Origin: a bacterium
GTDB taxonomy: Bacteria > Verrucomicrobiota > Kiritimatiellia > CAIKKV01 > CAITUY01
Length of the DNA: 64,000 nt
Reading direction: 5' to 3'
NCBI GenBank assembly: GCA_037143175.1
Contig: JBAWZF010000009.1
Span: forward strand, 1,959 to 65,958
The notes under the pieces were generated by a model, which saw only the letters and a program-made list of their open reading frames with translations, was not told the DNA's origin and made no database searches. Positions 31,399 to 58,270 of the stretch are shown here, in pieces. The translations under genes and the position numbers were made by a program. How positions within the stretch are numbered: position 1 is the first letter of the stretch; each line of letters begins with the position of its first letter.

Positions 31399-32648
31399 AT
31401 CGTTTTCCGCATATTATTAAATAGCTCTGCCAATGGAGCTGCATTCCGGGCAATATCAAATCGTTCCCGTATGGTGGTGGTACCGAAAGTTGACAGTATC
31501 CGACACAATGATTCGCTTTTCAACAATTCTTCGATCATTTCCGCCAAGATCCGGGCATCACCTGGTGGGGCCAAAAGGCCGGTACGACCGTGGACGATTA
31601 CTTCCGGTATCCCGGCGACCGGAGTAGTGACCACGGGAATACCCGCTGCCAGAGACTCCAGGATGACATTTGGAAGGCTGTCCCGGTCGCCATCGGGTGC
31701 GATGATGCATGGGAGAGCAAATACATGGGCCTGTTTGAGCAGGGAGACAACTTCCTCTGTCGAACACTCGCCCAGCAGCTGAACCGTTTCAGCGAGTCCC
31801 AACCGGTTAATTGCGGATTCAAGATTACGGCGCTCGGAACCTTCGCCGACGATGAGGCATCGGAAGGCCAGGTGGCGGTCACGCAAGATTCGGCAGGCTT
31901 CGATCAGGATGACGAACCCTTTTTTTGGTTGCAAACGACCGACAGCCAGAATTAGAGGTGGGACAGGGCGTTCTGTTATTTGTCCGCCGTTGACTGGTGT
32001 CGGGGCTTCACTCGAAGAGAACTCGGACGGTGTTAAGCCGTGGTAGATCAGGTGGACCTTCTCTGGCGGCAACGGACCAGCCCGCCGGTTAAGTTCATCT
32101 AAGCCGTAACTGGTACATACGGACACAAATTTAGCCGCCTGCGCCTTCCGTGACAGGGCTGCACGTGACTGAAGATAAATGTCTCTGGCGTGGGCGCTGA
32201 AACTGAAACTTATATTCAGCAGAGTAGCCATCATACGGGCTACATCTGTGGGCATATAGGCGAAATGCGCGTGAATATGTTCCACGCCGAAGTGCCCGGC
32301 CCGGCGAGCAAAGATGGCGGCTACCGGGAGATTCCGAAGGCACTTCAACAGTTCAATCGGGTCATGCAGGGAAGCGGCCAGAGTTTGCAGCAGGGCGCGA
32401 AGTGTGCGGCGCGGATGCCGCAACATGAAATACCACTGAGCAGTGATCACGGCAGGTGATAAGAGCGACGGACGGTAATATACCAGATGCTTTGGGGTTA
32501 GGTTCCCGGCCTGGCGGCAGATGACGGCTGGGCGTCGCAGGGAGAAGATGATAATTTTGAATCCCTTTCTCCGGAGTTCATCAAGCTCTCTCTGGATGAA
32601 GGTCTCTGTCCGGGAAGGGAACGTTCCTAGCACATAAGCGAGTTTCAT
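31395..32648 (-). CDS. Glycosyltransferase family 4
   Basis: Start set at MKLAYVLGTFPS (ATG at 32648, 1 nt after the upstream stop). C-terminal FALPCIIAPDGDRDSLPNVILESLAAGIPVVTT. Confidence 0.8.
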   Translation of the reverse strand: MKLAYVLGTFPSRTETFIQRELDELRRKGFKIIIFSLRRPAVICRQAGNLTPKHLVYYRPSLLSPAVITAQWYFMLRHPRRTLRALLQTLAASLHDPIELLKCLRNLPVAAIFARRAGHFGVEHIHAHFAYMPTDVARMMATLLNISFSFSAHARDIYLQSRAALSRKAQAAKFVSVCTSYGLDELNRRAGPLPPEKVHLIYHGLTPSEFSSSEAPTPVNGGQITERPVPPLILAVGRLQPKKGFVILIEACRILRDRHLAFRCLIVGEGSERRNLESAINRLGLAETVQLLGECSTEEVVSLLKQAHVFALPCIIAPDGDRDSLPNVILESLAAGIPVVTTPVAGIPEVIVHGRTGLLAPPGDARILAEMIEELLKSESLCRILSTFGTTTIRERFDIARNAAPLAELFNNMRKTI

Positions 32649-32649
32649 G

Positions 32650-33807
32650 TCAGGCATGGCTGGCGGCCTCCTCATACACGACTTCTGTGTCCGCCGCAAC
32701 GTTGGCCCATGAGAATTTGCGGACATGGTTCAGGCCCCTCGCGATCAGGTCGGTTCTCACTTTGTCGTCAGTCAGTACCGTTTCCATGGCAGCGGCCAGT
32801 CGGTCGGTTGCGAGCGCGTCCGTGGTGATGGCTGCCGGTCCCGCAATCTCCGGCAGGGCGCCCCTGTCGGAGATAACCACAGGCGTTCCGCATGCCATGG
32901 CCTCAAGGGGGGGCAGGCCGAAGCCCTCATAAAGTGAAGGGAATACGAAAAGAGCGGCCATGTTGTATAGCAGTGGTAATTTATCAAAAGGAATAAAACC
33001 GGTAAAGATAACGTCCTGCTTCATATCCTGCTCACGAATAGCGCGTCTCACGTTGGCCTGATCCCATGATGGGACTCCGGCGATCACAAGTTGATGGGTG
33101 ATGGCCGGGTTCTGTCGCAGTAAGCGATAGGCTTTGATCAGGCGCGTCAGGTTTTTCTTGGGTTCCAGTCCGCCGACAAACAGTATGAAAAGCTCCGGCA
33201 AACGGTATTCCAAGCGCATACGACTGAAGGCATCTTCGCCCAGCAGGATACGGAATTCAGGGCGCACACCGAGCGGTATGACGCGCACTTTGTTCTCGGC
33301 GGCAGGAAAATATCGCAGCAGGTCGGTGCGAGTGGTTTCGGAGGGAACGATTATTCTTGTGGCCTTGCGGACAGAGGGAGGCACCAGCAGGCGGTAGTGA
33401 AGCCGGTTGCTGAGTGTGCAAAGCTCGGGATGGGACAACGCGATCAGATCGTAGAGGGTGATCACCACCGGGATCCGTGACAGAATTGGGGCCACATAGC
33501 CTGGCGCATGGAGTAGATCGAAACACTGGTTTATCAGAAACGATGGGAGAACCAACTGTTCCCACAAGATGCGGATGGGACGAAGGTTGACAGGCCAGCG
33601 GGTAGATAGGGTCGCCGTTGACCGGCGGGCGCTAAGCGGCCCGCCGAAGCCGTGTGGAGTAGCGCCCGGTTTGTCTACCACGGACTGCGTGAAGAGGGTG
33701 TAATCATACTTGCCGAAAGCGGCCAGGGCTTGCACCAGGTTCAGGATGGAGCCTTCCACGCCGGAGTGGCGGTGGCCCAGAAGCATTCCATCTATGGCTA
33801 TGCGCAT
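32650..33807 (-). CDS. Glycosyltransferase family 4
   Basis: MRIAIDG...HSGVEGSILNL N-terminus; FVFPSLYEGFGLPPLEAMACGTPVVIS. Confidence 0.85.
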   Translation of the reverse strand: MRIAIDGMLLGHRHSGVEGSILNLVQALAAFGKYDYTLFTQSVVDKPGATPHGFGGPLSARRSTATLSTRWPVNLRPIRILWEQLVLPSFLINQCFDLLHAPGYVAPILSRIPVVITLYDLIALSHPELCTLSNRLHYRLLVPPSVRKATRIIVPSETTRTDLLRYFPAAENKVRVIPLGVRPEFRILLGEDAFSRMRLEYRLPELFILFVGGLEPKKNLTRLIKAYRLLRQNPAITHQLVIAGVPSWDQANVRRAIREQDMKQDVIFTGFIPFDKLPLLYNMAALFVFPSLYEGFGLPPLEAMACGTPVVISDRGALPEIAGPAAITTDALATDRLAAAMETVLTDDKVRTDLIARGLNHVRKFSWANVAADTEVVYEEAASHA

Positions 33808-35000
33808 GGTGTGCTCCTGTCAGAGAGAAGTTCGTCATAGATCGCCTCTATCTCCATGATTCTTTTCCTGACGTTAAAGTCTTGTTCAACACGTTGCCGC
33901 CCGGCTGCACTGAGTTGTTCTGCCAACAGCGGATTGTGGATCAGGCGAAGTGCCTCCCCAGCCAGATCCTCCGCCCGATCGCTTGCGGCTAGAAGTCCGT
34001 CAATGCCATGACGAATTATTTCGGCAGGGCCACAGGCATTCACCGCCACCACGGGTTTACCCCTGGCCATGGCTTCCAGTATGACCCGACCCAGTGGCTC
34101 TCGCACAGCGGGGTGGATCAGGATATCTATTGACTCCAGCAGCGGGGTCACATCCTGGAGGTGTCCCGTGAAAAGCAGGCGGTTCTTAAGACCCAGTTGC
34201 GCGATTTTGGATTCAAGCGTCGTCCGATAACCGCGATGTTCGTCGAAGAGATCGTCGCCAACGATTACAAACCGGGCGTCGGGCAGGATCGCGGCCAGCC
34301 GGACGGCTGTTTCAATAAAGGCGCCATGGTTTTTCCATGGCACCAACTGGGCTATCATGCCAAATACCGGCCCCTTGTGAAGCAGGCGTTCAGTCTGTGG
34401 TCCCACTGGTTCGTCCGGAAGACTGTTCTGCGATTTGCCGTGGGGTGCATTCAGGGTGGTATCGATGCCGTTATAAATGGTTCGCAGTTTATTTGGCGGG
34501 TGAATGCACGGTGAAACATGACGGTGAACGCAATCAGAAATGGCAATGGTGCGGGACGAGAAGCGGTTCAGCCAGGGTCCCAGTAAGCCTAAAGTCACCA
34601 TGTCACGAGTATGCCAGATGCAGGGAACCCCGGACAGTCGTGCCGCCGGGCCTGCGTAGATCTGTGCGGTATTGCTGTTGGCATGAATGAGGGCAATCCG
34701 TTCCCGGCGAATCAGTCGTGTCAACTGCACGGTAACCTTGAGGATATTCAACAGGCTGACAGCGAGGCACCAGGGATTCGTGGTTTTGCAGATCCTGCGC
34801 AAGGGGAGGGGCAGACATCTCGCACCGCACTGCCGGAGCGATTCGGTTAACTCGCCGCCGGGGGGGAGCGCGACGATCGGATCAAACCTGTTCCTGTCAA
34901 TATGCCGCAACATGTCCAGAAGGCTGCGCTCCGCGCCGCTGATGCGTGAGACATGGTTGACGAAGAGAATACGCGCCGGTTTCACCGGGACACCATCCAC
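33798..35000 (-). CDS. Glycosyltransferase family 4
   Basis: ILFVNHVSRISGAERSLLDML N-terminus; LIHPAVREPLGRVILEAMARGKPVVAV. Confidence 0.85.
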   Translation of the reverse strand: MDGVPVKPARILFVNHVSRISGAERSLLDMLRHIDRNRFDPIVALPPGGELTESLRQCGARCLPLPLRRICKTTNPWCLAVSLLNILKVTVQLTRLIRRERIALIHANSNTAQIYAGPAARLSGVPCIWHTRDMVTLGLLGPWLNRFSSRTIAISDCVHRHVSPCIHPPNKLRTIYNGIDTTLNAPHGKSQNSLPDEPVGPQTERLLHKGPVFGMIAQLVPWKNHGAFIETAVRLAAILPDARFVIVGDDLFDEHRGYRTTLESKIAQLGLKNRLLFTGHLQDVTPLLESIDILIHPAVREPLGRVILEAMARGKPVVAVNACGPAEIIRHGIDGLLAASDRAEDLAGEALRLIHNPLLAEQLSAAGRQRVEQDFNVRKRIMEIEAIYDELLSDRSTPCA

Positions 35001-35803
35001 GTATCGGTCAGGTCAATGACCTTGCGTTCCCAGTCCAGCCCATAGAAACTATGGTTGGCGCCGGTAATCTCATGGACTTCCTGAGGGATGCCGAGTCGTG
35101 AACAAAGCGATGTGTAGCCAGCCTTGGAGGCCGCCGTCTCCGGATCATTTGTGCCGTGGATACAAAGTATGCGGCCCTTGAAGTTGCGCAGTTGGTTTAA
35201 CCAGAGAGTTTCATCATGGATTTCCCTCTGTCCGGCGGCCTCCCTGGCTCCCACCGCTTTTTTTACCATCCTGACATTGATCCGAAACGTCAGGAGTTTG
35301 CGCCACGTTTCCAGCCGTAGCAACTTCCGGCCGTAAGTGCGCAGGGCATCCAGCGATTTGCGGTTCTTGCTGGAGGTGTCGCGCATGGGCCCCATCGGTT
35401 CGGGCGACCAGAGTGCCAGTCCACCAACCCGCGCGTCGGTTGCCGCCGCGCCGATCGCGACTTTGCACCCGGAACAGATGGCCAGCAGAACCACCTGGCG
35501 TTCGGGATACTGTGGCAAGATAAAGTCCAAGGCGGCCGTTGCGTCTGCGATCATCGATCGGATAGAGGCATCAGCAGTAGTGCCGCCGCTATCGCCACGT
35601 CCGCGGAAATCGAAACGCAGGCAGACACAGCCGCGGGCGGTCAACCGTCGAGCCATATGGACGAACATCCGGTGCGGGCCGAGGCGTGAGCCGGCCCACC
35701 CGTGTAGGAACACGACCAGTGGTCCCGCGCGATCCGGCTCCGGCTCATGAACGATGCCATAAAGAGTCTGGTCGTTTACCTTGAAATGGATGGGGTGTTC
35801 CAT
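34982..35803 (-). CDS. Alpha/beta-hydrolase-fold protein with apparent Cys nucleophile (exosortase-A-associated hydrolase-1-like?)
   Basis: 273-aa ORF. LVVFLHGWAGS oxyanion region; nucleophile elbow VVLLAICSGCKVAIGAA (small-x-Cys-x-small); GTNDPE (acid); GANHSFY (His). Confidence 0.75.
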   Translation of the reverse strand: MEHPIHFKVNDQTLYGIVHEPEPDRAGPLVVFLHGWAGSRLGPHRMFVHMARRLTARGCVCLRFDFRGRGDSGGTTADASIRSMIADATAALDFILPQYPERQVVLLAICSGCKVAIGAAATDARVGGLALWSPEPMGPMRDTSSKNRKSLDALRTYGRKLLRLETWRKLLTFRINVRMVKKAVGAREAAGQREIHDETLWLNQLRNFKGRILCIHGTNDPETAASKAGYTSLCSRLGIPQEVHEITGANHSFYGLDWERKVIDLTDTWMVSR

Positions 35804-35811: not shown

Positions 35812-36639
35812 TCAGGTATTAGAAGTGAGCAAATTAATCCAAGCCTTGGTCTTATCGATTAACGATGGACACTCCACCAGTCCGACCAGATTCCAGAACG
35901 GATCTTCTTCTGCTGAAATAAGGTCAATGTGGGCCCCGCCGTCAAGGCTTGCCTCCTTGAGTGCTGATAATTCCCGTGGCCCCGCACCGCTTGGCGCAAT
36001 ATGAACCAGCAGTACTTTGCGGGGCCTCTGTGCCGCCGCCTTGATCAGATCAATTGTGGTGATGTCATGAAACAGCCGCGAGTTTACGGCATAGCCATCC
36101 AGATCTATCGGCCGGCCATCTTCCAAATCTTTCAGCAAGGTTGCCCGCGTCACGCGGCTCTGCCCGAACGTCACCATTTCCCGAACCAATTTTCGGCGGA
36201 GTTCATAATCAAAATGACGGCGGCCATGGATAATGGGTTCCCAAAGTACGGTAAATTCGAGGGACTCAATCATTTGGGCCGCTTCAAAAGCCAGTGACGC
36301 GCCTAGACGCAAGCCCAGCAATCCGAGCCTGTTCAATCCAATTTGTCCGGTCATAAAACGAGCGGCGTGGGTGATATCTTCACGCCAGTCCGGGCAGGAG
36401 AAATCCTTAAAATCACCAGTACTATCACCGCAGCCGCAATAATCGAAACGCAGGACGGCGCAACCGTTGGCGGCAAAGGCTCGGGCGGCGTCAACCATAA
36501 TCCGGTGGGAACTCTTGCGCTCCTCGAAGAGCGGGTTACACATCACCATTCCGCACCGAATCTCTCCTTCCGGACGGTAGAGCATGCCGGACAAGGTGTC
36601 ACGCCCTCTTGGAATCAGAACGGATTGTTCCATACTCAT
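35812..36639 (-). CDS. Alpha/beta-hydrolase-fold protein with non-canonical elbow (exosortase-A-associated hydrolase-2-like?)
   Basis: 275-aa ORF. Fold-typical VMCNPLFEERKSSHR...LRFDYCGCGDS. The elbow reads LGLLGLRLGASLA, with Arg where the Ser nucleophile normally sits. Confidence 0.7.
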   Translation of the reverse strand: MSMEQSVLIPRGRDTLSGMLYRPEGEIRCGMVMCNPLFEERKSSHRIMVDAARAFAANGCAVLRFDYCGCGDSTGDFKDFSCPDWREDITHAARFMTGQIGLNRLGLLGLRLGASLAFEAAQMIESLEFTVLWEPIIHGRRHFDYELRRKLVREMVTFGQSRVTRATLLKDLEDGRPIDLDGYAVNSRLFHDITTIDLIKAAAQRPRKVLLVHIAPSGAGPRELSALKEASLDGGAHIDLISAEEDPFWNLVGLVECPSLIDKTKAWINLLTSNT

Positions 36640-36896
36640 TCGGCAGTCATTTTGCTGCCTACAAACGCGGCCAGAGCGGCGACAGTTGCGAAATGTTTAA
36701 TGCTGAACTCCTCGTCGGGGATGACGATGCCAAATTCTTCTTCAATGCCTACCACCAATTCGAGCAGGCTCACCGAGTCCACTCCATAGTCGTCCATGAG
36801 CGATTTGTTGTCTTCAATCGCTTCTGGGGCGATTTTGAGAAAAAGCCTTGATGCGATCATGCGTTTCAGCCGGTCTTCAATGTTTTCTTCAGTCAT
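36636..36896 (-). CDS. Acyl carrier protein
   Basis: 86-aa acidic ORF with phosphopantetheine attachment motif DDYGVDSVSLLELV. ATGA overlap with the downstream hydrolase. Confidence 0.85.
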   Translation of the reverse strand: MTEENIEDRLKRMIASRLFLKIAPEAIEDNKSLMDDYGVDSVSLLELVVGIEEEFGIVIPDEEFSIKHFATVAALAAFVGSKMTAE

Positions 36897-36997: not shown

Positions 36998-37870
36998 CTA
37001 TTCCGTCACTGGCAGCGTTGTTACCTCCGTCAGCTTTCCGACACGCAGGCGGCGCCAGGGCGTTTCCTCATCGGAAGGACCTTGCTCACTCTCGAACATG
37101 GACTGCCAGCGTTGCTTGAATAGCAGGCCATGGCGGATAATCAAGCCAGTGTTGGGTAGCGTTTGTGTTCCGGCCGTGGTGATACTTTCAAAATGATACA
37201 TCTCCACCGTGGGGTCAAAGACAATGCGATGACCCTGGCTCCGGACGCGGTAACAAAGATCAAAATCCTCGAATTCGACGGGGTTAAAAGTCTCGTCAAA
37301 GCCTCCGGCATTCTCAAACAGTTCGCGTCGGATCATGAAACAGGCGCTGATCAGGCACTGGACATCCTGTTTTTGGCTGAAGCGGGGATCGTCCCGTCGT
37401 TCGCCCCGGCCGCGAAATAAGACCCGGCCAGTGCGTGAGATGCCGACTCCAGCACATTGGATCAGATGCGGGGGCAGGGGGTACACCAATTTTGGGCCTA
37501 CTATGCCGACAGACGGGTCGGCATCAAGTGTCGATCCCAGTGTTGCCAGCCAGCTCCGGCTGCGGAGCGCCACGTCATTATCAATAAACACCAGCCGGGA
37601 TCCGGACGCTATGGCGGCACCCTGGTTTCGGGCTGTGGAACATCCGACATTCCCCTTGTTGCGTATCAGTCGGACGTTAACACCTGCGGTTCTGGCCATA
37701 GCGGTCAACTCGTCGATTACCCAATCAGGCGTATGATCAGTCGAGCCGTTGTCCACGACGATCAATTCCCACTTTGCGCCTATGGACGCCAGTAATGACG
37801 GCAGGCAGAGACGGGTGTAATCTAGCTTGTTGTGAGTCAGTGTGACCACTGAAGTGAGTGTGAGTGGCAT
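36998..37870 (-). CDS. Glycosyltransferase family 2
   Basis: VVTLTHNKLDYTRLCL, VVDNGSTDHT and FIDNDV (DxD) motifs. TAATG overlap with the upstream E1 beta gene. Confidence 0.85.
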   Translation of the reverse strand: MPLTLTSVVTLTHNKLDYTRLCLPSLLASIGAKWELIVVDNGSTDHTPDWVIDELTAMARTAGVNVRLIRNKGNVGCSTARNQGAAIASGSRLVFIDNDVALRSRSWLATLGSTLDADPSVGIVGPKLVYPLPPHLIQCAGVGISRTGRVLFRGRGERRDDPRFSQKQDVQCLISACFMIRRELFENAGGFDETFNPVEFEDFDLCYRVRSQGHRIVFDPTVEMYHFESITTAGTQTLPNTGLIIRHGLLFKQRWQSMFESEQGPSDEETPWRRLRVGKLTEVTTLPVTE

Positions 37871-38853
37871 TACTCCTCCACCAGTTTCCGGGCCGCTTCA
37901 AATATCCGGCTTCGATCCGGTATGGCGGCTCGCTCGAGCGCCGGACTGGCGGATAACGGGATATCAGGTGTAGCCAGTCGGAGGAGCGGGGCATCGAGAT
38001 AGTCATAGACAGTCTCGGAGATGCGGGCGCTGATTTCGGCTCCGAATCCGCCGGTTCGACAGGACTCCTGAACAATCAGGGCGCGATGCGTCTTTTTAAC
38101 TGAGGCGATGATCGTATCCATGTCCAGCGGGATTAATGACCGAAGATCGATAACCTCGGCACTGATTCCCTGTGTGTTTAAATCCTCCTCCGCCGCACGC
38201 CCGGCTTCTGCGCTCATCCATGACCAGGCGATCAAGGTGATATCCGTTCCTGCCCTGGCTATTCTTGCCTTGCCCAGTGGGATTACGGTATCAGGTGCTT
38301 CGGATACTTCCCCGCGACAGCCGTAAAGCAATTTATGCTCCATGAAAACAACCGGATTATCATCCCGGATCGCGGCCTTCAGCAGCCCTTTGGCATCGGC
38401 TGGCGTTGACGGCGCCACCACCTTCAGGCCGGGAACATGCGTGAACCAGGCTTCCAGACTTTGCGAGTGGGTGGGACCATAGCAGCGTCCGCCGCCGCCC
38501 ACGGTACGTAGCACCATAGGACACCTGGCCTGTTTTCCTAGAACATAGTGCAACTTGGCCGCCTGGTTCACCATTTGATCCACCGCCAGGGTGATGAAAT
38601 CCATGAACATGATTTCCACCACCGGGCGGGAACCCGCCAGCGCCGCACCTATGGAGGCGCCCACGAATCCCTGCTCGGAAATCGGGGTATCACGAACGCG
38701 CTCGGCGCCGAACTTGTCAAGGAGCCCGCGTGTGACCCCGAAGGCCCCGCCATAGATACCGATGTCCTCGCCCAGGAGAAAAACATCCGGGTTGATTATC
38801 ATTTCCTCTTGCAGGGCTTCCCGCAGGGCTTCGGTATAGCTGATTGTTCTCAA
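37870..38853 (-). CDS. 2-oxoacid/acetoin dehydrogenase E1 component, beta subunit
   Basis: 327-aa ORF. LLGEDIGIYGGAFGVTRGLLDKFG..RVRDTPISEQGFVGASIGAA, typical of transketolase-like E1 beta. Confidence 0.9.
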   Translation of the reverse strand: MRTISYTEALREALQEEMIINPDVFLLGEDIGIYGGAFGVTRGLLDKFGAERVRDTPISEQGFVGASIGAALAGSRPVVEIMFMDFITLAVDQMVNQAAKLHYVLGKQARCPMVLRTVGGGGRCYGPTHSQSLEAWFTHVPGLKVVAPSTPADAKGLLKAAIRDDNPVVFMEHKLLYGCRGEVSEAPDTVIPLGKARIARAGTDITLIAWSWMSAEAGRAAEEDLNTQGISAEVIDLRSLIPLDMDTIIASVKKTHRALIVQESCRTGGFGAEISARISETVYDYLDAPLLRLATPDIPLSASPALERAAIPDRSRIFEAARKLVEE

Positions 38854-39803
38854 GCGAACACTCCTTCTTCAAGCGTGGCTGGATCGGGATCAGGGCTCTG
38901 CTTGGCGAACCGTACCGCTTCAGTCACAATGGCACGCGCTTCGCGACGGAGGTGCCGGTCGTTTTCCTGGTTTAGTGCGCCGCGCTTGATCAGTACAGCC
39001 CGGAAACGCCGGATGGGGGCGCGAGTCATCCATAACGCTTCCTCTTCCCGTGAGCGATAGATGCGCTGATCGCCGCGTGAGTGGCCGGAGTGGCGATAGG
39101 TCTTGCATTCCACCAGCGTAGGACCCTCTCCGTTACGAGCGCGGATACAGGCGGCCTGCATGACCTCGCGGACTGCCAGGAGGTCGTTGCCATCCACCAC
39201 GACGCCTGGAAAGCCATAAGAGGCGGCGCGATCGGCTATGTAGGGTATGGGGATCGCCTTGTCCACATGGGTTGACATAGCGTACAGGTTGTTCTCGCAG
39301 ACATACACGACGGGCAGTTTCCAGAGGCCGGCCAGATTCAGGGATTCGTGGAAAGTTCCCTGATTGGATGCGCCGTCGCCAAAAAAACACACCGCGATCT
39401 TTCCCGTATCCTTCATTTTTGCCGACAGTGCGGCGCCGGTGGCGATGGGAATACTGCCGCCGGTAATGCCATTGCCTCCGAGAAATCCCATCCTGTAGTC
39501 GGCCATAAACTGGCTGCCTCCGCGGCCCCGTGAATAGCCTGTTGCCTTGCCGAAAATCTCGGCCATGATCCGGCGTGGGTCTCCGCCACGGGCGATGAAA
39601 TGGCCATGCCCCCTGTGGGTACTGGTAATGTAATCCCCTTTTTTCAGCACACTGCAGACGCCCACCGCCACCGCTTCCTGGCCGGTGGCCGGATGTGTCG
39701 TGCCGCGAATGACGCCATCTGAGAAGAGTCTTTCCACCTTCTCTTCGAAGAGGCGCATGACCAACATGGTGCGATACCAATTGAGCATTTGTTGAGTTGT
39801 CAT
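38850..39803 (-). CDS. 2-oxoacid/acetoin dehydrogenase E1 component, alpha subunit (AcoA-like, ThDP-dependent)
   Basis: ThDP motif GDGASNQGTFHESLNLAGLWKLPVVYVCENN. AcoA-like THRGHGHFIARGGD and GRGGSQFMAD. Start set at MTTQQML (ATG at 39803), 10 nt after the upstream stop. Confidence 0.9.
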   Translation of the reverse strand: MTTQQMLNWYRTMLVMRLFEEKVERLFSDGVIRGTTHPATGQEAVAVGVCSVLKKGDYITSTHRGHGHFIARGGDPRRIMAEIFGKATGYSRGRGGSQFMADYRMGFLGGNGITGGSIPIATGAALSAKMKDTGKIAVCFFGDGASNQGTFHESLNLAGLWKLPVVYVCENNLYAMSTHVDKAIPIPYIADRAASYGFPGVVVDGNDLLAVREVMQAACIRARNGEGPTLVECKTYRHSGHSRGDQRIYRSREEEALWMTRAPIRRFRAVLIKRGALNQENDRHLRREARAIVTEAVRFAKQSPDPDPATLEEGVFA

Positions 39804-39813
39804 AGAAATGATT

Positions 39814-40848
39814 TCAGGTTCCGGAGTCCATGCCACGCACAGCCAGACACACCACGTTACCGCCCGGATCAATGGAGTTGACCAGTGTGACACCGTGGTT
39901 TTTTGCATTCAATGCGGCGATCACGCGTAACGCCGCGTCGGCGCCCGACGTCTCGCCCAGTATGGCCTTGAGGAGGTTCACGGGCATTCGTTCCGGTCTG
40001 TCGCCTTGGAATTCCCTGATGGCAGCCATTTCCACCGGATCAAGATCACCGCCCGGGGTTGCTGCTGAAAGGCCTGTTACCTCGTCTTCCCTTTGGGCGA
40101 GACTGCGGCAGGCAAGATGCATGGCCTTACGGATGTCTCCTCCCGTCATACCGCCGCCCAGAATCTCTCCCTGAACAACGGCACCGCGTTGCCGGGCGTG
40201 GTCGGCATTCTCCAGCACGACTATTCCGGCGCCTTCGCCCGGCATGAATCCTTGTTGGTCATCATTCAATTCAGTTCCCCGCAGGAGCATCGGGCTCAGG
40301 GCTTCGAACCCGCCGGCGAAGACCAGCGGGCACCGGCCCGTCCGGACCATGTCATAAGCCTGCAAAAGTGCGCCGGATGAAGACGTGGCCCCGGATGATA
40401 AATTGAGATGATAGCCATTCAGGCCATACTCGATTGCCAGCAGGCTGATGGTGGTGTTGGCGTAGGCATGGGGGAAGAGTATCGGTTTGACAAAGCGGGG
40501 GCCTTTCTCGAGGTAATCGGTGAAGAAGAGCTGGGTGCTTGCGAGACAGCCGGTTGCGGAACCCAGAATCAAGCCCATGGAGGAGCGATCCATATTCTTA
40601 AGGTCAAGATTGGCATCTTCAATCGCCAGGCTCATGCCCGCAAAGGCGAGTTGTGAAGCGCGGTCCAGATAGGCTTTTTCAGTTTCCAGGTAGTCCACCA
40701 CGTTGAAATCGCTGATCTCGGCGGCAAATTGTCCGATGCCGCTCCGGTAGCGGCGTACGCCCTCCATGAACGCTTCTCGTCCGATGCCGATGGAACTGAC
40801 TGGTCCCACCCCTGTAATGAACACGCCTTTATCTTCCCTGGTTTTCAT
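39814..40848 (-). CDS. Ketosynthase-fold protein lacking the Cys-His-His triad (KS-beta/chain-length-factor-like partner)
   Basis: 344-aa thiolase-fold ORF (VFITGVGPVSSIG N-terminus). Active-site positions read GATSSSG (Cys to Thr), AATPGGD (His to Thr) and KAILGETSG (His to Glu). ATGA overlap with the upstream KS. Confidence 0.8.
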   Translation of the reverse strand: MKTREDKGVFITGVGPVSSIGIGREAFMEGVRRYRSGIGQFAAEISDFNVVDYLETEKAYLDRASQLAFAGMSLAIEDANLDLKNMDRSSMGLILGSATGCLASTQLFFTDYLEKGPRFVKPILFPHAYANTTISLLAIEYGLNGYHLNLSSGATSSSGALLQAYDMVRTGRCPLVFAGGFEALSPMLLRGTELNDDQQGFMPGEGAGIVVLENADHARQRGAVVQGEILGGGMTGGDIRKAMHLACRSLAQREDEVTGLSAATPGGDLDPVEMAAIREFQGDRPERMPVNLLKAILGETSGADAALRVIAALNAKNHGVTLVNSIDPGGNVVCLAVRGMDSGT

Positions 40849-42035
40849 TCTGCCCTCCGGAAAATCACGGCCGCATTACAGCCGCCGATGCCCGCCGAGT
40901 TTGACAGGACAGCCCGGAGGTCCATGCTCTTTTTGACATTGGCGACACAGGGCAGATCGCATTCAGGATCCGGATCGCGGTAGTTTGTGGTCGGCGGGAT
41001 CACCCGGTTCCTGATCGACAGGATCGAGGCGATGGCCTCGATACTGCCGGCTGCGCCCAGCATGTGGCCGGATGACGACTTGATTGAGGTAATGGGCATC
41101 GCATAGGCGTGCGTACCGAATACTTTTTTGATGGCCTGTGTCTCGGTGACATCATTGGGTTTGGTTCCGGTGCCATGGGCGTTGATGTGGTCAATTTCCT
41201 CCGGTTTCATTCGTGCGTCGTGGAGTGCCATCTGCATGACGGCGGCTGAACCCGCTCCCTCTTTGGCCGGAGCGGTCATGTGAAAGGCGTTGTTATTGGC
41301 CCCGTATCCCGCGATCTCGGCATAGATCGTGGCCCCGCGTTTGCGGGCGGATTCCGCGTCTTCAAGCAGCAGGGCTCCTGCGCCTTCACTGAACAGCGTA
41401 CCGGAGCGGTTCTTATCAAACGGGCGAAGCGCGTCTTTGGTCATGGTTCGCAGGGCACTCAACCCGCTCCAGGCGAATCGGGACAGGGCGTCGTACCCGC
41501 CTGTCAGCACGGCTTTGGCATGTCCATGCCGGATGAGGTCCATCCCGTAACCGATCGCCGCCGTGCCTGAGGCACACGATAGAGACAACACGAAGCGGGG
41601 GCCGCCGAGATGCCATTGTTTGGCGACATGGTCAGCGCAGGACTGGAACAAAGATTCTGAATAGTCTGACGGTTGTGCCGTGTCCTTGCCTGACAGGTCG
41701 GTAATGACATTTTCGCCGGAGATGATGCCGCCGAAATTAGTGGCAAGCACCACTCCGGTTTCGGCCGGGTCAGGGACGCCATCCCGAAGCGCCTCTGCCG
41801 CCGCCGCCAACATGAACTGCGTGGCAAGGTCGGTATTTGCGCCTGTTGCGGCGCAGTCCTGTGGCAGGTGAAAATCGCGAATTTCTCCGCCCCGTGTATA
41901 GGCGAAATCCTTGAGGTCGAACCGGGTCAGGTCCCCGATGGCCGATTCACCGTTGCATAAGGCCTCCCACAGGCGCGGCACTCCGATTCCATACGGTGAT
42001 ACAGCACCCATCCCTGTGACGACGATTGTTTTCAA
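40845..42035 (-). CDS. Beta-ketoacyl-ACP synthase (FabF/KS-alpha-like), catalytically complete
   Basis: Active-site SLSCASGTAAIG (Cys), INAHGTGTKPND (His), KSSSGHMLGAAG (His). Likely TTG start giving MKTIVVTGMG, overlapping the FabG stop (TTGA); the ORF-track GTG start is at 42059. Confidence 0.9.
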   Translation of the reverse strand: MKTIVVTGMGAVSPYGIGVPRLWEALCNGESAIGDLTRFDLKDFAYTRGGEIRDFHLPQDCAATGANTDLATQFMLAAAAEALRDGVPDPAETGVVLATNFGGIISGENVITDLSGKDTAQPSDYSESLFQSCADHVAKQWHLGGPRFVLSLSCASGTAAIGYGMDLIRHGHAKAVLTGGYDALSRFAWSGLSALRTMTKDALRPFDKNRSGTLFSEGAGALLLEDAESARKRGATIYAEIAGYGANNNAFHMTAPAKEGAGSAAVMQMALHDARMKPEEIDHINAHGTGTKPNDVTETQAIKKVFGTHAYAMPITSIKSSSGHMLGAAGSIEAIASILSIRNRVIPPTTNYRDPDPECDLPCVANVKKSMDLRAVLSNSAGIGGCNAAVIFRRAE

Positions 42036-42775
42036 ATGTGCAGCCCTCCATCCACACACAGAACTTGGCCGGTGATGTAGTGCGCTTCGTCTGAGGCGAG
42101 GAAGGCGACGACACGGGCGACTTCATCGGGTTGACCGAAGCGACCCTGGGGAATGCGCTCCAGTTGCTTCGTTCGGCGTGTTGCCGACATGCCGGCAATC
42201 AGGTCTGTTTCGATAATACCGGGGGACACGGCGTTAACCGTGATGCCAGAGGGAGCGAATTCCCGCGCCACGGATTTTGTCAACCCGATCAGGCCGGCCT
42301 TGGCTGATGCATAATTGGCGCGCATCATGTCGCCCATCAGTCCGGCGTCAGAGGAGATGTTGATGATGCGTCCGGACTTCTGCCGGATCATCTCGCGGCC
42401 CACCGCCTTGATGCAGTGATAGGCCCCTTTCAAATCAACGTCCAGCACGTCGTTCCACTCCTCGTCCTTCATGAAGGTGACGTAGTTATCGCGGATAATT
42501 CCCGCGTTATTTACCAGGATATCCACCCGTCCCAGTGCTTGCTTTGTCTGTTCAATCATAGCTTTGACCTGATCCAGATGACGCACATCAGCCTTGAAGG
42601 GAAGGGCCTGTTGGCCAAAACCGCGGATAAGGACGGCGACTTCCTCGGCGGCCGCCGCCTGATTAACGTAGTTCACCACCACATGGACGCCTTCGGTTCC
42701 CAGTGCCAATGCCACGGCCCGGCCAATACCACGCGCACCACCGGTTACAATGGCCACTTTACCTTTTAGTTTCAT
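42032..42775 (-). CDS. 3-oxoacyl-ACP reductase (FabG-like SDR)
   Basis: VTGGARGIGRAVALAL, NNAGI and catalytic YASAKAG (YxxxK); 247 aa. Confidence 0.9.
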   Translation of the reverse strand: MKLKGKVAIVTGGARGIGRAVALALGTEGVHVVVNYVNQAAAAEEVAVLIRGFGQQALPFKADVRHLDQVKAMIEQTKQALGRVDILVNNAGIIRDNYVTFMKDEEWNDVLDVDLKGAYHCIKAVGREMIRQKSGRIINISSDAGLMGDMMRANYASAKAGLIGLTKSVAREFAPSGITVNAVSPGIIETDLIAGMSATRRTKQLERIPQGRFGQPDEVARVVAFLASDEAHYITGQVLCVDGGLHI

Positions 42776-42788
42776 GAGATGTTTTGGG

Positions 42789-43274
42789 TTACTTCTTCTC
42801 CATCAGGTATTTGTTCAGCACGTTTTCAGTGATTACCTCCACCTTGTACTTAGCCTGCACCAGTGCGAGATCCGTTCCGTGTTCACGGGCGAGTCGGCGT
42901 GCGGCGGGAGTGGCCCGGAGTGCGCCGGTCACGGCTCCGGCTTGTTTGCCTTTTTCCAAGGAAACGTTTTGAACCTTCCGTGTTAGCGTCTCCATCAGAC
43001 GGCGGTTAGAGGCGCTCACATCAGGCAAACTGTCGATCGTGTCTCCGATAAGGGCGACAACGTATCCTGCCGGGAGACTACTCTTCACTTCGGCCAGTGT
43101 TGCAAGCAACACTCCCGAGCGTGGTGCTTCCAACTCGAATGCCACCTTACTAGTGGACAGTTCGATCAGCGGATCTCCCTTATTGACGTACTCTCCCTTT
43201 TTTTTCAGCCAGGCGGTGATTGCCTGTTCTTCGTCGTTTTCGGTCAGTTTTGGGATTTTGACTTTTGTAACCAT
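42789..43274 (-). CDS. Free-standing lipoyl(biotinyl)-domain plus peripheral-subunit-binding-domain protein (E2 without catalytic domain)
   Basis: 161-aa ORF. Lipoyl-domain pattern KIPKLTENDEEQAITAWLKKKGEYVNKGDPLIELSTSKVAFELEAPRSGVL, with SKV in place of DKA. PSBD pattern LRATPAARRLAREHGTDLALV...ITENVLNKYL. The ORF then stops 13 nt before fabG-like. Confidence 0.8.
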   Translation of the reverse strand: MVTKVKIPKLTENDEEQAITAWLKKKGEYVNKGDPLIELSTSKVAFELEAPRSGVLLATLAEVKSSLPAGYVVALIGDTIDSLPDVSASNRRLMETLTRKVQNVSLEKGKQAGAVTGALRATPAARRLAREHGTDLALVQAKYKVEVITENVLNKYLMEKK

Positions 43275-46200
43275 TATTTATTTTCCTGTTCTCGGCCGAA
43301 AATCACTACATGCAGCGGCATGGATAGATTGCCAGCTTTATCCCGTACGCGCAATGTCAGCCATCCGGTTTCTTTAACCGATGCGGGCAAGGAGTAGGGC
43401 GTCAGACTCATGCCGTTTGTCTGTAGTGTGTTTTCCCATTGGATTCCGGCGATACCACTCTCATCATAGGCGTCCATTTCTATCAGGTCAGTGGGACTCC
43501 ATGGGGCAAAGACAAATACGCTTTGCAGTTGCTGCCGGAAGCGTTTGTCATTGCCGTCAGAGATGAAGGTCAGGTTTTTTACTACAAACTGGTTCGTAGA
43601 TCCTGCCGGCAACTGGTTTTTGAGAAGTTTGCCCGCATCAATGATGAATGATTGCCAGGCATTTGAGGCCCAAGTCAAGGGTCGGGGAGGGGCCTGGAGA
43701 ATGGCGTCCGCTGGAATTTCAGACAGACTAAATTTAAACGTATTGGTCGTTTCAGTCTCCAGAATGATAGCGACGCGGGGATTTTCGTTAGAGATCAATA
43801 CGGGGTGTCGCAGTTGAAACGCGAGAAAGGGGTAACGCTGAACGTTCCATTTTGGGGAAAACACATGCGTCATGGCTCCGGTTGAAGTTCCGGATACCAG
43901 CGAAAGATAGGGAGCTTCGCCCAGTTGGCATTCCAAGGTTGTAGTCCCGCCGGCTAGTGAGGTAAAGGGAGGATTAGTTTCTGCCATTCTTGCGCTGACC
44001 GTTGTCCAGAATATGTTCGAGGGATAAGAGGCAGACAGCACTGTTGGGGGCGTATGATCGGCAGCGTAATTGATCCGGCGAGGGAATTCCAGGTCGGGCA
44101 AGACGTTCCCCGCACCATCCTTGATTTCCGACAGGATGATTTTAAAGGCTTGGCCGGAGTCCGCCTGATTCAATTGTTGGCGGAAAATAAGTGACCAGTT
44201 CAACGCGAGGATGTCGTAATTAGTTGAATGGCTTAGGGTTGAGCCCAGCGTGTGAGTGATGGGGACGATGGTATCGTTCCATTTGAGTTTAAGCGCTTCC
44301 ATATCCAGAGGGGCCTCGCCATCCGTCTTGAATTTTACGCACAGAGAGGAACCGTTGCCCATGGCGTTGGTGGCTGGTTCAAAGGTACCGGTAGCGGATG
44401 GAGGCGTTCGGTCTATCAAGAATGGGATCGATGTGACCGGCGAAACGGCGTCCCTGTAATTCGCGGCTTTGAGGAAAATGTGCGCCAAGCCATTTCTCAG
44501 GGATTTGATGTCAGGCATAGTCTGTTGATTGTTAGGGATGTCGCGCCAAATGAGATCCGCGCATTGGGCGGAATTCAGGGACGGGTAGTCCTCCGGGCCG
44601 TTTCGGAGTGCCATTTGAACCTTTGTGACACCCTCAAAATCAAAGTAGTGCGGGGTGAAGGCCAGTTGTTCGTCCTTTGCCACGGAGGGTCCCGCCATCA
44701 GGTCGTCCAAGCTGAGTTCCGTGTATAGGCCGGTTTGGTCAACACTGTTGACCGAGCCGAACCGGAGTCCGCTCGCGTTGAATACCCCCGGTTGGCAGGG
44801 CTTCTCGATCAATGCATCGGTGACTAGTCCCCACCAGGTGTGCCACTGGTTGTCCAAGATCAGGTTGCCGGCACCACGAACCCCGCGCGCCGGTCCGTCC
44901 GGTTCGCTCAGGCGGACGGGGCCAACCGACCCACAGTCGAGCGACACTCGGGCCATGGATGTTCCGCGATACCGGAACTGCACCACTGGATACCGGGCGA
45001 ACGGCAGGGGAGCCTCGAAATAGCTACTCAGGCGTTGCGCAGTGCCCTGATTATATGTGGTTAGGAAACTTTGTTGGACGGGGTCGCAATCGGATATCAG
45101 GGTGCGTTGAGAGGGTTGTCTACCGCAGACTTTACGCGATTCGAATGATTCAATCAGCGGGCTGATGCCATCCAATTTCAGGAGCATTGGGGGTGTGCGC
45201 TGCGTGGCGTCAGCCCATTTCAAGGCGAATACACAGGTGTTGGTACCATGGACAACTTTGACTATGAGATTCGAGACGGGTCCGGTGGCGGCGTCGCTCA
45301 CACGTGGCACAGAGGCCTCCAGAGTATTGGGTGGCAGAAATCGTGTGTAAGCACTGGTTGATGCAATGGTGACGGTTGCGCCGGCAAGGGCACGGTCGGG
45401 TGAACCGGATGTTGACCGGAATTCGATGGTGTCTGGTTGCTGTTTGCTCCATGCACATGAGAGAGGCTGTGTCGTTGCGGCATGGTGCGGGATGGAGGCG
45501 AAGTTTTTGATCGCGTAGCCTTCGCCAGGCCCGTTGCCTGTCAGCCCTTGTACGATGTAACCGGCTTGTAGGTTGCCCAATCCTTCAATCTTGACGAGGA
45601 CGTTGGAGTCGTTGATAGATGCGGCCCAGTCTGCAACAGGGATCCAAGCCGTTGCGGTCGTCCAGTTTCCGTTGGTGTGCCATGCAGTAATTCCATTGAT
45701 GGGGGCGCTTCCTGGCACAGCCGTTTGTCCTGTTAGTTGATACTTGCCCTTTGAAAAACTTTCACCCGATAATTGGTGGAAATAGAATCGTTCCGGTGTA
45801 TAGGTTCCCTGGGTGTTGCGGCGGCCGATGGAATAATACAGATTGAACTGACCCCGATCGGTTCGTTTGACGTCGAAACGCCAGCCTGCAAGACTGGAAT
45901 AGGGGACTGGGGGGAGTGTGCAGCGGGTCAAAAGGGAACCGCTGCCAAGAATGCTTGTTACCGCGAAATAGGGACTGGAGTTGGTTGGAGTCATCCAGTC
46001 GAGGCGAGCCTGTGAGACCGGGTCATCAACTTCCCACGAGTCCCGATCCATGGGGCCCGTTGTGCGGTCACTGTTTGAGGCGAGCGGTGTTGAGGGATGG
46101 TTGGTGGTCGCCGGGGTGGGGCCGGCAGGGGTGAGAATACTGCGTAGGGCTACCGGCTTGAAGGTGACGGGTCGCGGGGTGACTGATTCCGCGGCGATCT

Positions 46201-49195: not shown

Positions 49196-49340
49196 ATGAT
49201 CACAAAAGTCCAATTGCCCGAAACGTGGCGATATCGTCTGGCTTTCGTTCACTCCGCAGGCTGGTCATGAGCAGGCGGGCCACCGTCCCGCATTGGTGCT
49301 TTCCCCAGAGTCCTATAATCGCAAGGTTGGCCTTGCCTTG
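49196..49340 (+). pseudogene. MazF/PemK-family toxin remnant (frameshifted and 3'-truncated)
   Basis: ATG at 49196 gives MITKVQLPETW. After a +1 shift, the frame starting at 49227 reads GDIVWLSFTPQAGHEQAGHRPALVLSPESYNRKVGLAL. This matches the conserved MazF N-terminal core (GD.....F.P..G.EQ.G.RPA.VLSP..YN...G). Similarity ends at about 49340, with no PITS-type continuation. Confidence 0.55.
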
Positions 49341-57239: not shown

Positions 57240-57258
57240 GGATGGGAGTGGGTTAGAA

Positions 57259-58260: not shown

Positions 58261-58270
58261 GCTTAACCTG

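Follow-up and report, generated by a model that had tools for sequence, protein, structure and literature searches.

A predicted lipoyl carrier without an E2 catalytic core is conserved in ketosynthase/ACP/sugar-polymer gene clusters of several bacterial phyla

The window (the whole stretch of DNA analysed, 64 kb in length) harbors an operon whose genes are listed in Table 1 and through which start and stop codons repeatedly overlap: the stop codon of the giant secreted protein gene shares 1 nt with the carrier ATG (TAATG), the KS-beta and KS genes overlap by 4 nt, and the GT2 gene overlaps that of E1 beta by 1 nt. The carrier gene ends in TAA and is followed, after a spacer of 13 nt, by the KR ATG at 42775. 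This gap had been pointed out in an earlier interpretation made from the letters alone (the sequence-only reading), as had the interposition of the KR, KS and KS-beta genes between carrier and E1, and both observations hold. The order in the PVC group is giant secreted protein, carrier, FabG-like KR, KS, inactive KS-beta, E1 alpha, E1 beta, GT2, ACP, two alpha/beta-fold proteins, GT4s, MurJ and Wzy, and this synteny is maintained across PVC MAGs at 39-85% carrier identity.

Table 1. Features of the cassette, with positions in the window
Feature	Position	Strand	Characteristics
Wzy_C polymerase/ligase	26846-28117	minus	PF04932
Small secreted protein, 183 aa	28114-28665	minus	matches 186-aa protein of locus L088
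Fourth GT4	28678-29823	minus	PF00534
MurJ-family flippase	29827-31398	minus	PF03023 (E 5e-68); TIGR01695, 248 bits vs cut-off 235.55
Three GT4 glycosyltransferases	33798-35000, 32650-33807, 31395-32726	minus	PF00534 + PF13439
hyd1, alpha/beta hydrolase with Cys-Asp-His triad	34982-35803	minus	TIGR03100 (E 4.4e-29), below cut-off
hyd2, alpha/beta-fold protein without canonical nucleophile	35812-36639	minus	TIGR03101 (E 2.4e-39), below cut-off
Acyl carrier protein (ACP)	36636-36896	minus	PF00550 (E 2.2e-13)
GT2 glycosyltransferase	36998-37870	minus	PF00535 (E 3.7e-22)
E1 beta	37870-38853	minus	PF02779 + PF02780, full length
E1 alpha (ThDP-binding), cassette-specific clade	38850-39803	minus	PF00676 (E 5.4e-89)
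KS-beta, ketosynthase partner, catalytically dead by sequence	39814-40848	minus	weak PF00109/PF02801 matches
FabF-type ketosynthase (KS)	40845-42059	minus	PF00109 + PF02801; intact Cys-His-His triad
FabG-like 3-oxoacyl-ACP reductase (KR)	42032-42775	minus	PF13561 (E 1.3e-68)
Lipoyl + PSBD carrier	42789-43274	minus	161 aa, no acyltransferase core; lipoyl lysine K43
Giant secreted protein, possibly lipoprotein	43274-49003	minus	1909 aa; N-terminus MKRLALISLFLFAYLLSC

In the carrier, the Pfam scan placed PF00364 (E 3.3e-12) on residues 4-76 and PF02817 (E 1.1e-6) on residues 120-140, with no match to PF00198, which is the outcome that the sequence-only reading had predicted for a lipoyl + PSBD protein devoid of the E2 core. 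In the AlphaFold2 model (pLDDT 80.9), residues 1-77 form a beta-barrel and residues 87-104 a helix; a disordered linker (103-117) then leads to a PSBD of three helices (123-160), and Foldseek superimposed the barrel on solved lipoyl domains at ~1.1-1.4 A rmsd. Of the 36 PSBD positions, Pfam matches just the first 21, and most members of the carrier family lack the canonical GTG..GR loop, suggesting that the partner of the carrier may be neither E1 nor E3. The lipoyl lysine lies in the sequence LSTSKVAFE. The STSKV motif that had been described as unusual is indeed present, but among 25 carrier sequences (36-84% identity) it is confined to a close clade, while the family consensus is the ordinary TDKA. 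Likewise, the carrier is not strictly the only gene in the window with a PF00364 domain, as a second one is located at 11440-13431; that domain, however, is of the biotinyl type (EAMKL).

The same two-domain architecture was observed in 105 homologue clusters of 155-189 aa. With a profile search at E <= 1e-30, 425 representatives were recovered; the top 150 were mostly 155-200 aa in length. K43, T41 and the helix motif RATPAARR-A (RATPAARRLA) are invariant in the 25 sequences, and an E2 catalytic domain was found within 10 kb in none of 40 carrier loci. Judged from this conservation, the missing core is a design feature rather than a frameshift or an accident, in agreement with the earlier proposal.

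The two E1 genes largely conform to their earlier description: the E1 beta is full length, the GDG...ENN (ThDP) motif of E1 alpha is intact, and the coordinates and features of E1 alpha and the carrier were as given, with the exception of the E1 alpha start. This start is probably Met36 (39803) and not 39908 as in the mechanical ORF, since orthologous proteins measure 315-330 aa and the longer ORF would run 95 nt into KS-beta. The GHS histidine of E1 alpha is conserved, and E1 beta retains the histidine equivalent to G. stearothermophilus H128-beta in an alignment to 3DUF_B; the roles of the alpha and beta E1 histidines in reductive acylation have been documented (PMC2663715). E1 beta scored 394.8 bits against NF006667 (cut-off 321), whereas E1 alpha reached 370 bits against TIGR03182, under the cut-off of 393.85, and its nearest solved structure is human PDH E1 alpha. 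The THRGHGH and GRGGSQFMAD motifs, previously taken as AcoA-like, are both present. THRGHGH, however, is common to all E1 alpha of the subfamily, even where a full E2 follows downstream, and GRGGSQFMAD is a cassette-specific version of the canonical G[KR]GGSMHIAD. In a neighbour-joining tree, all 30 cassette E1 alpha fell inside one clade of 38 with its own GRGGSQ signature, which points to a dedicated paralogue, distinct from the housekeeping PDH. Because of this separate clade, the label "AcoA/AcoB-type" cannot be asserted.

The KR scored 266.6 bits against NF009466 (cut-off 222). In the KS, the Cys of LSLSCASG and the His residues of NAHGTGT and SGHMLGAAG are conserved in six orthologues. 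In KS-beta, A/G/V/S/P occupies the position of the active-site Cys, T/N that of the first His and E that of the second, and no CLF-type Gln was found in the orthologue alignment. Pfam and NCBIfam scans of the cluster found no KSIII, acyltransferase, dehydratase or enoyl reductase, and no E3, lipoate ligase or PPTase was detected in the 64-kb window, in which the small ORFs were scanned in part. The ACP retains the phosphopantetheine serine in a DSV motif, and its best NCBIfam match is an AmcB-type ACP (72 bits, under the cut-off of 80).

C110, D220 and H251 of hyd1 are invariant in 17 sequences and occupy the canonical triad positions in the AlphaFold2 model, which Foldseek matched to capped esterases and lipases. 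In hyd2, an Arg is found at the nucleophile position; among nine orthologues, G-x-R-x-G is invariant and there is no conserved His. Thus, hyd2 is likely a non-catalytic partner of hyd1, for which we propose a role as acyl-ACP off-loading transferase. A hyd2 without a nucleophile paired with a Cys-Asp-His hyd1 fits off-loading from ACP.

The N-terminus of the giant protein, MKRLALISLFLFAYLLSC, is a signal peptide with a possible lipobox, and its sole Pfam match is a weak one to DUF6250. Its gene lies directly upstream of the carrier in all PVC-type cassettes (synteny in L001-L012 and L083-L087), and the GT2 gene is always between E1 beta and ACP (L002, L008, L083-L085, L087, L088 and L127). The best NCBIfam match of the first GT4 is the XrtA-system GT TIGR03088, below cut-off. 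The MurJ, GT4, small secreted protein and Wzy_C gene order is repeated in L088, an Armatimonadota genome that also carries LipB within the cluster (170 bits vs cut-off 155).

Across the 40 loci, KR adjoins the carrier in approximately 30 and a PPTase in 16, and the carrier keeps KR, KS/KS-beta and PPTase neighbours even without E1 nearby. In Abditibacteriota and Planctomycetota, PPTase, KR and KS are beside the carrier, and no E1 was found near it in this neighbourhood survey. In addition, the carrier is fused to a PPTase in protein P0340 and to a FabG-like KR in P0338 and P0361. By gene content, the core-less carrier is therefore conserved within a ketosynthase/ACP/sugar-polymer gene cluster in several bacterial phyla. 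The earlier suggestion of an ACP-based pathway, and not CoA, as the destination of the acyl group gains support from the PVC synteny, the PPTase/KR/KS adjacency, the fusions P0340 and P0338 and the LipB gene, which support placing the carrier in an ACP/ketosynthase pathway and not in a CoA-forming complex.

Our favoured explanation, to which we assign a probability of about one half, is that the carrier is a dedicated, scaffold-free lipoyl shuttle from a specialised E1 alpha-2/beta-2 to a type II ketosynthase/ACP pathway in a glycoconjugate cluster. As suggested by the PSBD fold and known alpha-2/beta-2 complexes, the carrier would dock on E1 beta, or alternately on a housekeeping E3. Judging by its conserved ThDP motif and its two catalytic histidines, E1 would decarboxylate a 2-oxoacid, with pyruvate as the default guess, and reductively acylate the lipoyl group on K43. 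The S-acyl-dihydrolipoyl arm could then acylate KS, within the KS/KS-beta heterodimer, directly on its active-site Cys, with no E2 catalytic domain and with an acceptor other than CoA; we infer this direct priming because no KSIII or acyltransferase was found in the cluster and KS-beta, besides being dead, has no Gln that would allow self-priming. By homology, KS would condense the acyl group with malonyl-ACP, and KR would yield a 3-hydroxyacyl-ACP. From ACP, the acyl group may be transferred to a glycan by hyd1, with hyd2 as its partner. The GT2 and GT4 enzymes would assemble this glycan, MurJ and Wzy would export it, and it may be associated with the giant secreted protein. The dihydrolipoyl arm would be re-oxidised by an E3 encoded elsewhere.

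It is conceivable, although unlikely, that hyd1 and hyd2 replace the E2 core; the hyd1 Cys would take the acyl group off the dihydrolipoyl arm and deliver it to the ACP thiol, and KS would be fed by acyl-ACP. The invariant hyd1 triad would suit thioester exchange, the hyd2-hyd1 fusion in L084 implies that the two work together, and the AcoC model NF011457 (372 positions) matches the carrier, albeit over positions 2-116 only. The remaining part of AcoC, an alpha/beta hydrolase, would offer a precedent. However, neither hyd1 nor hyd2 matches NF011457 at E <= 1e-3, and hyd2 has the Arg and the missing His described above. The pair also does not follow the carrier: L089 contains the ACP-hyd2-hyd1 unit without carrier, E1, KS or KR, Abditibacteriota-type loci, L081 and L082 do not have the unit beside the carrier, and L083 and L085 each retain just one of the two. 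Together with the exosortase-A resemblance considered below, these observations count against the AcoC analogy of the sequence-only reading, and direct KS priming by the acyl-lipoyl arm is favoured over it. A very improbable alternative is that KS, KR and ACP form a private octanoyl-ACP route that lipoylates the carrier via LipB and LipA while the carrier serves E1 in normal catabolism. Mitochondrial FAS II, whose main purpose is to supply octanoyl-ACP for lipoylation, and the LipB of L088 speak for it; nevertheless, bacteria already make octanoyl-ACP, the dehydratase and enoyl reductase were not found in the cluster, and the always co-linear GTs, flippase, Wzy and giant protein would be left unexplained.

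Two further possibilities retain a more conventional or a separate role for E1. The carrier could be an accessory of an ordinary dehydrogenase, in which a full-length E2 core elsewhere discharges the acyl group to CoA and acyl-CoA enters the pathway conventionally. Split architectures have been described for actinobacterial complexes, where lipoyl and catalytic domains can be on separate, shared proteins (PMC8740704), and the E1 of L095, which falls in the cassette clade, is followed by a complete E2. We consider this quite unlikely, as no E2 catalytic domain lay within 10 kb of the carrier in the 40 loci, the cluster has no KSIII or acyltransferase to accept an acyl-CoA starter, and the KR and PPTase fusions and constant KS adjacency point to an ACP system. 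Alternatively, the E1 pair might be a ThDP-dependent C-C bond former that extends a keto-sugar by a two-carbon branch, in line with proposals for PDH-like E1 pairs in deoxysugar pathways, with the carrier in an unrelated role such as redox or docking. The motif near the active site is altered in the cassette E1 alpha, E1 beta overlaps GT2, and in Armatimonadia E1 beta, unaccompanied by an adjacent E1 alpha, travels with GT2-ACP-hyd, carrier, KS and KR not being nearby; PDH-like genes are also documented in sugar-decorated natural-product clusters (PMC4425429). Yet E1 keeps both histidines for the reductive acylation of lipoamide, every PVC cassette, as well as L097 and L045, has carrier and E1 in a co-linear arrangement, and the conserved lipoyl lysine and PSBD would hardly make sense unless E1 or E3 were a partner, which renders this reading decidedly improbable.

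Our literature search found neither a published description of such a carrier system nor a precedent for a lipoyl arm acylating a ketosynthase cysteine directly. Taken together, the conserved core-less carrier suggests a previously undescribed route by which a 2-oxoacid-derived acyl group may reach a surface glycoconjugate. Consistent with a place of the hydrolases on the ACP side, hyd1 and hyd2 appear homologous, by TIGR matches below cut-off, to the ACP-linked "hydrolase 1/2" pair of exosortase-A systems (TIGR03098-03101), in which the ACP is loaded by an acyl-CoA-ligase-type enzyme.

The carrier gene belongs to one tightly packed minus-strand operon (26846-49003), in which several start and stop codons overlap and in which the KR, KS and KS-beta genes lie between the carrier and the E1 genes, as a sequence-only reading of this DNA had reported. 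The 1909-aa secreted protein, for which no confident domain match was obtained (DUF6250 matched weakly), is translationally coupled to the carrier, its stop codon overlapping the carrier ATG as TAATG. Because genes for acyl-chain chemistry occur together with glycosyltransferase, flippase and Wzy_C genes, the cluster joins acyl chemistry to the assembly and export of a lipid-linked glycan. No E3, LipB, PPTase or S9-type esterase was found elsewhere in the window by tblastn and Pfam searches; the S9/PHB-depolymerase-like esterase is missing because the integrase directly upstream of the cluster occupies the position held by the esterase in most related cassettes. The flanking WaaA and nuo genes indicate a diderm, respiring host, the closest relatives of which are unclassified or Victivallales MAGs. 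In addition, the carboxylase-type genes at 11440-15290, outside the operon, could supply malonyl units.

Genes of the operon, in order of transcription, and features outside it
Feature	Position	Strand	Remarks
Secreted protein, 1909 aa	43274-49003	-	possible lipobox (LLSC)
Carrier, 161 aa	42789-43274	-	after the 1909-aa protein gene
FabG-like ketoreductase (KR)		-	directly after the carrier
FabF-type ketosynthase (KS), then degenerate KS-beta		-	after KR
E1 alpha	38850-39803	-	after KS-beta
E1 beta		-	after E1 alpha
GT2 glycosyltransferase, then ACP		-	after E1 beta
hyd2	35812-36639	-	alpha/beta fold, after ACP
hyd1	34982-35803	-	alpha/beta fold, after hyd2
Three GT4 glycosyltransferases, then MurJ-family flippase		-	after hyd1
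Fourth GT4, small secreted protein, Wzy_C protein		-	after the MurJ flippase, end of operon
Oxaloacetate-decarboxylase-alpha/pyruvate-carboxylase-B-like protein with biotinyl domain (EAMKL), accA and accD	11440-15290	-
Tyrosine recombinase (phage integrase family)	49293-50465		directly upstream of the cluster
Kdo transferase (WaaA)	50579-51892		flanks the cluster
Complex I (nuo) genes	56121-63112		flank the cluster

The Pfam scan of the carrier returned PF00364 at residues 4-76 (E 3.3e-12) and PF02817 at residues 120-140 (E 1.1e-6), the latter over the cut-off with only model positions 2-22 of 36 covered. There was no match to PF00198 (the C-terminal catalytic/core domain) or to PF01597 before the ORF ends at residue 161, and the scores against the E2 equivalog models all fell far under cut-off, which bears out the earlier description of a lipoyl domain and a PSBD with no acyltransferase. 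The canonical GTG..GR loop of the PSBD is missing in most family members, and the carrier PSBD is atypical in its second half. An AlphaFold2 model built from 25 homologues (pLDDT 80.9) comprises four parts: a lipoyl beta-barrel, which superposes on solved lipoyl domains, a family-specific helix (87-104), a disordered linker and a three-helix PSBD with predicted helices at 123-132, 136-143 and 150-160. The helix follows P84, includes N90 and separates the linker from the lipoyl domain. Residues 84-104 form a conserved, family-specific segment (LPDV.A.N) in which P84 and N90 are invariant; from the model, this segment could be a partner-binding element.

K43, T41 and the RATPAARR-A motif are invariant in the carrier family, down to 36% identity. 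On the basis of the TDK/TSK motif, the invariant lysine and the presence of LipB inside a homologous cluster, K43 is the predicted lipoylation site. The STSK motif noted in the sequence-only reading is indeed that of the window carrier; it did not hold as a family trait, as the consensus at the lipoyl lysine is TDKA and STSK is a clade-specific variant. The same reading took the carrier for the sole lipoyl-domain gene, which needs a similar adjustment: a second PF00364 domain is encoded in the window, and this one, the only other, is biotinyl (EAMKL). Given the contrast between this genuine biotinyl motif and the family TDKA, the reading of the carrier domain as biotinyl and not lipoyl was rejected.

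A word-indexed search recovered 105 clusters of homologues with both carrier domains, all 155-189 aa long, and an exhaustive profile search gave 425 representatives at E <= 1e-30, with short proteins dominating the top of the list. More than 100 of these homologues lack PF00198, and at 40 short-carrier loci no E2 catalytic domain was present within 10 kb. In the window, the ORF closes with a clean TAA, followed by a 13-nt spacer and the KR gene. The clean stop, the spacer and the more than 100 equally long homologues rule out a frameshifted or truncated E2, and the proposal that the core is absent by design thus stands. The family is widespread and unannotated: NCBIfam holds no model for the carrier, source annotations label its homologues as 'biotin/lipoyl-containing protein' or E2, and our literature searches turned up no account of a free lipoyl-PSBD protein that acts together with a KS/ACP system.

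Both E1 subunits are full length (PF00676 for E1 alpha, the start of which is probably Met36 at 39803; PF02779 and PF02780 for E1 beta), and alignment to human E1 alpha confirmed an intact ThDP motif (GDGA.NQG...CENN). The THSQS motif of E1 beta aligns with LHSDS of 3DUF_B, its histidine being the equivalent of Gst H128-beta, and YRHSGHS of E1 alpha aligns with YRYHGHS of the human protein, its histidine being the equivalent of Gst H271-alpha. The two Gst residues function in substrate binding and reductive acylation, the beta histidine contacting pyruvate and the alpha histidine facing the dithiolane ring (PMC2663715). As both are conserved, reductive acylation of a lipoyl arm by the cassette E1 is plausible. 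Among solved structures, E1 alpha is closest to human PDH E1 alpha, and E1 beta to the archaeal, Thermus and Geobacillus E1 beta proteins. E1 alpha scored 370.4 bits against the pyruvate dehydrogenase E1 alpha equivalog TIGR03182, under the cut-off of 393.85, and E1 beta passed the subfamily model NF006667 (394.8 against a cut-off of 321).

The relatives of E1 beta at 51-66% identity split into two sets, one of the cassette type (E1a-E1b-GT2-ACP-hyd2-hyd1) and the other in canonical E1a-E1b-E2(-E3) operons. In turn, 30 of 30 cassette E1 alpha sequences fell inside one clade of 38 in a neighbour-joining analysis (a quick distance tree from tblastn segments). One member of this clade, from locus L095, retains a full E2, an arrangement that may represent the ancestral state. 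Where canonical relatives have G[KR]GGSMHIAD, the cassette E1 alpha sequences read GRGGSQ[FLMH]M, and in PVC members the His is lost as well. These results do not favor the earlier assignment of an AcoA/AcoB-type E1. THRGHGH, which had been cited as AcoA-like, occurs throughout the E1 alpha subfamily, and GRGGSQFMAD is the cassette-specific version of the canonical GGSMHIAD. The cassette clade is separate from the Aco-type E1a-E1b-E2-E3 operons of Neobacillus and Paenibacillus, and neither hyd1 nor hyd2 matched the AcoC model NF011457; the assignment is thus not demonstrable.

Alignment of six orthologue pairs showed that KS retains its Cys-His-His triad and that none of the three catalytic residues survives in KS-beta. 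The active-site Gln of a CLF, which enables self-priming by decarboxylating malonyl-ACP, is also absent in KS-beta, where the position is A, G, V, S or P in the six orthologues. The phosphopantetheine serine of the ACP is conserved. Pfam and NCBIfam scans found no KSIII, acyltransferase or adenylating enzyme in the cluster, so the starter must come from elsewhere, and an acyl-lipoyl arm would be the obvious source.

In the AlphaFold2 model of hyd1, an invariant Gx-C-SG elbow, Asp220 and His251 occupy canonical triad positions, and its structural neighbours by Foldseek are capped esterases and lipases. This Cys-Asp-His triad, together with a weak PHB-depolymerase match of the upstream esterase in other loci, had raised the idea of a PHA-synthase-like hyd1; Foldseek led to generic feruloyl esterases and lipases, not to PhaC, and the idea remains remote speculation. 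In hyd2, the nucleophile position is always Arg (G-L-R-L-G) and no His is conserved, and in locus L084 the two proteins are fused into one of 571 aa. Full-length matches were obtained for hyd1 to TIGR03100 (E 4e-29, 101.6 bits, cut-off 168.45) and for hyd2 to TIGR03101 (E 2e-39, 135.4 bits, cut-off 202.75), and no exosortase domain was detected among the scanned window ORFs. On these scores, the two appear to be homologous to exosortase-A hydrolases 1 and 2 and are not members by curated criteria; by analogy, the division into a dead partner and a Cys-Asp-His enzyme may also hold in those families. The sequence-only reading had named these hydrolases as candidates for the E2 substitute, a role that is unlikely. 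The ACP-hyd2-hyd1-GT4-MurJ block occurs without carrier, E1, KS or KR at L089:5107-9837, hyd2 has no nucleophile and the homologues are ACP-linked, all of which fits an off-loading pair downstream of the ACP. Upstream of the L089 block, in place of E1, carrier, KS and KR, stand an Eis-like GNAT and a glycyl radical enzyme of the PFL2/3 family, and these may form an alternative acyl-supply module. The latter was dropped as an E1 stand-in (a pyruvate-to-acyl loader), being closer to dehydratases, with canonical PFL at merely 135 bits.

MAGs from Victivallales, Kiritimatiellia, Lentisphaerae and Verrucomicrobia share the cassette in full and in the same gene order, usually with an S9-type esterase ahead of it. 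In Abditibacteriota and related loci, including one complete genome and the cultured A. utsteinense, the order is large unknown protein, carrier, PPTase, KR, S9 esterase, KS and KS-beta, with no E1 within 10 kb of the carrier. The protein upstream of the Abditibacteriota carrier (about 1055 aa) has just faint similarity to the 1909-aa protein. Many Planctomycetota retain just the carrier-PPTase pair; save for the PPTase, the neighbours there are unrelated housekeeping genes, and these loci were set aside as further context. Another locus (L082) has carrier-KS-KS-beta-GT2...ACP without E1 or KR, and the profile search revealed fusions of the lipoyl-PSBD carrier to a phosphopantetheinyl transferase (P0340) and to a FabG-like KR (P0338 and P0361). 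An Armatimonadota cluster (L088) that shares its back half with that of the window encodes a LipB octanoyltransferase, scoring over cut-off, between the last GT4 and Wzy_C (L088:11942-12631). In Armatimonadia (L127:8864-10963 and L088:135-2138), a lone E1 beta gene precedes GT2-ACP-hyd2-hyd1 with no adjoining E1 alpha, the gene upstream being a GFO/IDH/MocA oxidoreductase or SGL-like. Taken together, synteny, adjacency and fusions across phyla suggest that the carrier is most tightly coupled to the ACP/KS/KR machinery and that E1 was added in some lineages.

From the observed domain architectures, conserved residues, synteny, fusions and E1 clade, a scheme can be proposed in which every chemical step, as well as the acceptor, substrate and product, is inferred. 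E1 would acylate the PSBD-docked lipoyl carrier, and the acyl-dihydrolipoyl arm might then, tentatively, prime the KS cysteine directly; ketosynthases are known to accept simple thioesters such as SNAC esters. KS would condense the acyl group with malonyl-ACP, KR would reduce the product to 3-hydroxyacyl-ACP, hyd1/hyd2 would move the 3-hydroxyacyl group to the nascent glycan, and a housekeeping E3 would recycle the arm. We regard the scheme as a whole as evenly poised. Its central reading, to which we give a probability of roughly 0.35, is that a lipoyl-lysine arm, on a core-less protein tethered by its PSBD and charged by a dedicated E1, serves as the starter carrier of a type II KS, and that a hybrid 2-oxoacid-dehydrogenase/PKS-FAS line, widespread in PVC, Armatimonadota, Abditibacteriota and Planctomycetota, adds 3-hydroxyacyl (or longer) groups to a surface glycan, which would be associated with the conserved giant secreted protein.

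In textbook 2-oxoacid dehydrogenases, the E2 core is indispensable on two counts, as it forms the scaffold and transfers the acyl group to CoA. In this conserved multi-phylum family, only the swinging arm and docking domain were kept in evolution, and they became tied to ketosynthase/ACP chemistry. If true, the proposed reading would provide a new route of KS priming, from a 2-oxoacid without CoA or ATP, an added role for lipoate and a first lead on the function of a large surface-glycoconjugate cluster in little-studied phyla; through homology, it would also help to explain the ACP and hydrolase 1/2 genes in the EPS loci of exosortase-A systems. E1 alpha-beta, the 161-aa carrier, KS/KS-beta, KR and ACP make up a small, soluble system that can be tested directly in vitro.

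[quoted passage not shown] There, as proposed here, an E1-like ThDP enzyme loads a lipoyl arm with an acyl unit, and this unit ends on a dedicated ACP and not on CoA; however, the catalytic domain is here absent family-wide, and a PSBD, a PDH-type alpha/beta E1 and a KS/KS-beta/KR set are present. With the canonical alpha-2/beta-2 complexes (G. stearothermophilus PDH, Bacillus acoABCL), the cassette has in common the lipoyl domain, the PSBD, both catalytic histidines and E1 subunits 45-60% identical to those of canonical operons, but there is no E2 core, and thus no scaffold or CoA acyltransferase, no E3 in the operon, and the E1 forms a separate clade with GRGGSQ.

AcoC of proteobacterial acetoin cleavage (NF011457) is likewise an E2 substitute with an N-terminal lipoyl domain and no PF00198 core, and the carrier matches this model over positions 2-116 of 372. 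AcoC is a lipoyl domain fused to an alpha/beta hydrolase and is not known to have a PSBD, whereas the carrier is free-standing with a PSBD. The exosortase-A (XrtA/PEP-CTERM) EPS loci resemble the cluster in their ACP, hydrolases 1/2 and XrtA-type GT4s, but differ in that the hydrolases scored under the trusted cut-offs and the window showed no exosortase. XrtA loci load the ACP through an acyl-CoA-ligase-type enzyme, in place of which the window has E1, carrier, KS and KR. In cispentacin biosynthesis, the heterodimer AmcF-AmcG, a KS with an inactive partner, performs a single elongation on the dedicated ACP AmcB (PMC10698177). The window KS and ACP match AmcF and AmcB, under cut-off. Loading of the ACP in the cispentacin pathway falls to an adenylate-forming enzyme, and no lipoyl carrier or E1 is known to take part. 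As in the H protein and E3BP, a lipoyl arm on a non-acyltransferase would shuttle between separate enzymes, and E3BP, to which the carrier has a match (1ZY8_K), likewise pairs a lipoyl domain with a PSBD; E3BP keeps an inactive core domain and is built into the E2 scaffold, whereas the carrier has no core domain at all. AcoC, E3BP, the H protein and the dismantled actinobacterial complexes have a single aspect each in common with this system, which is set apart from all of them by its joining of a free-standing lipoyl-PSBD carrier to a KS/ACP pathway.
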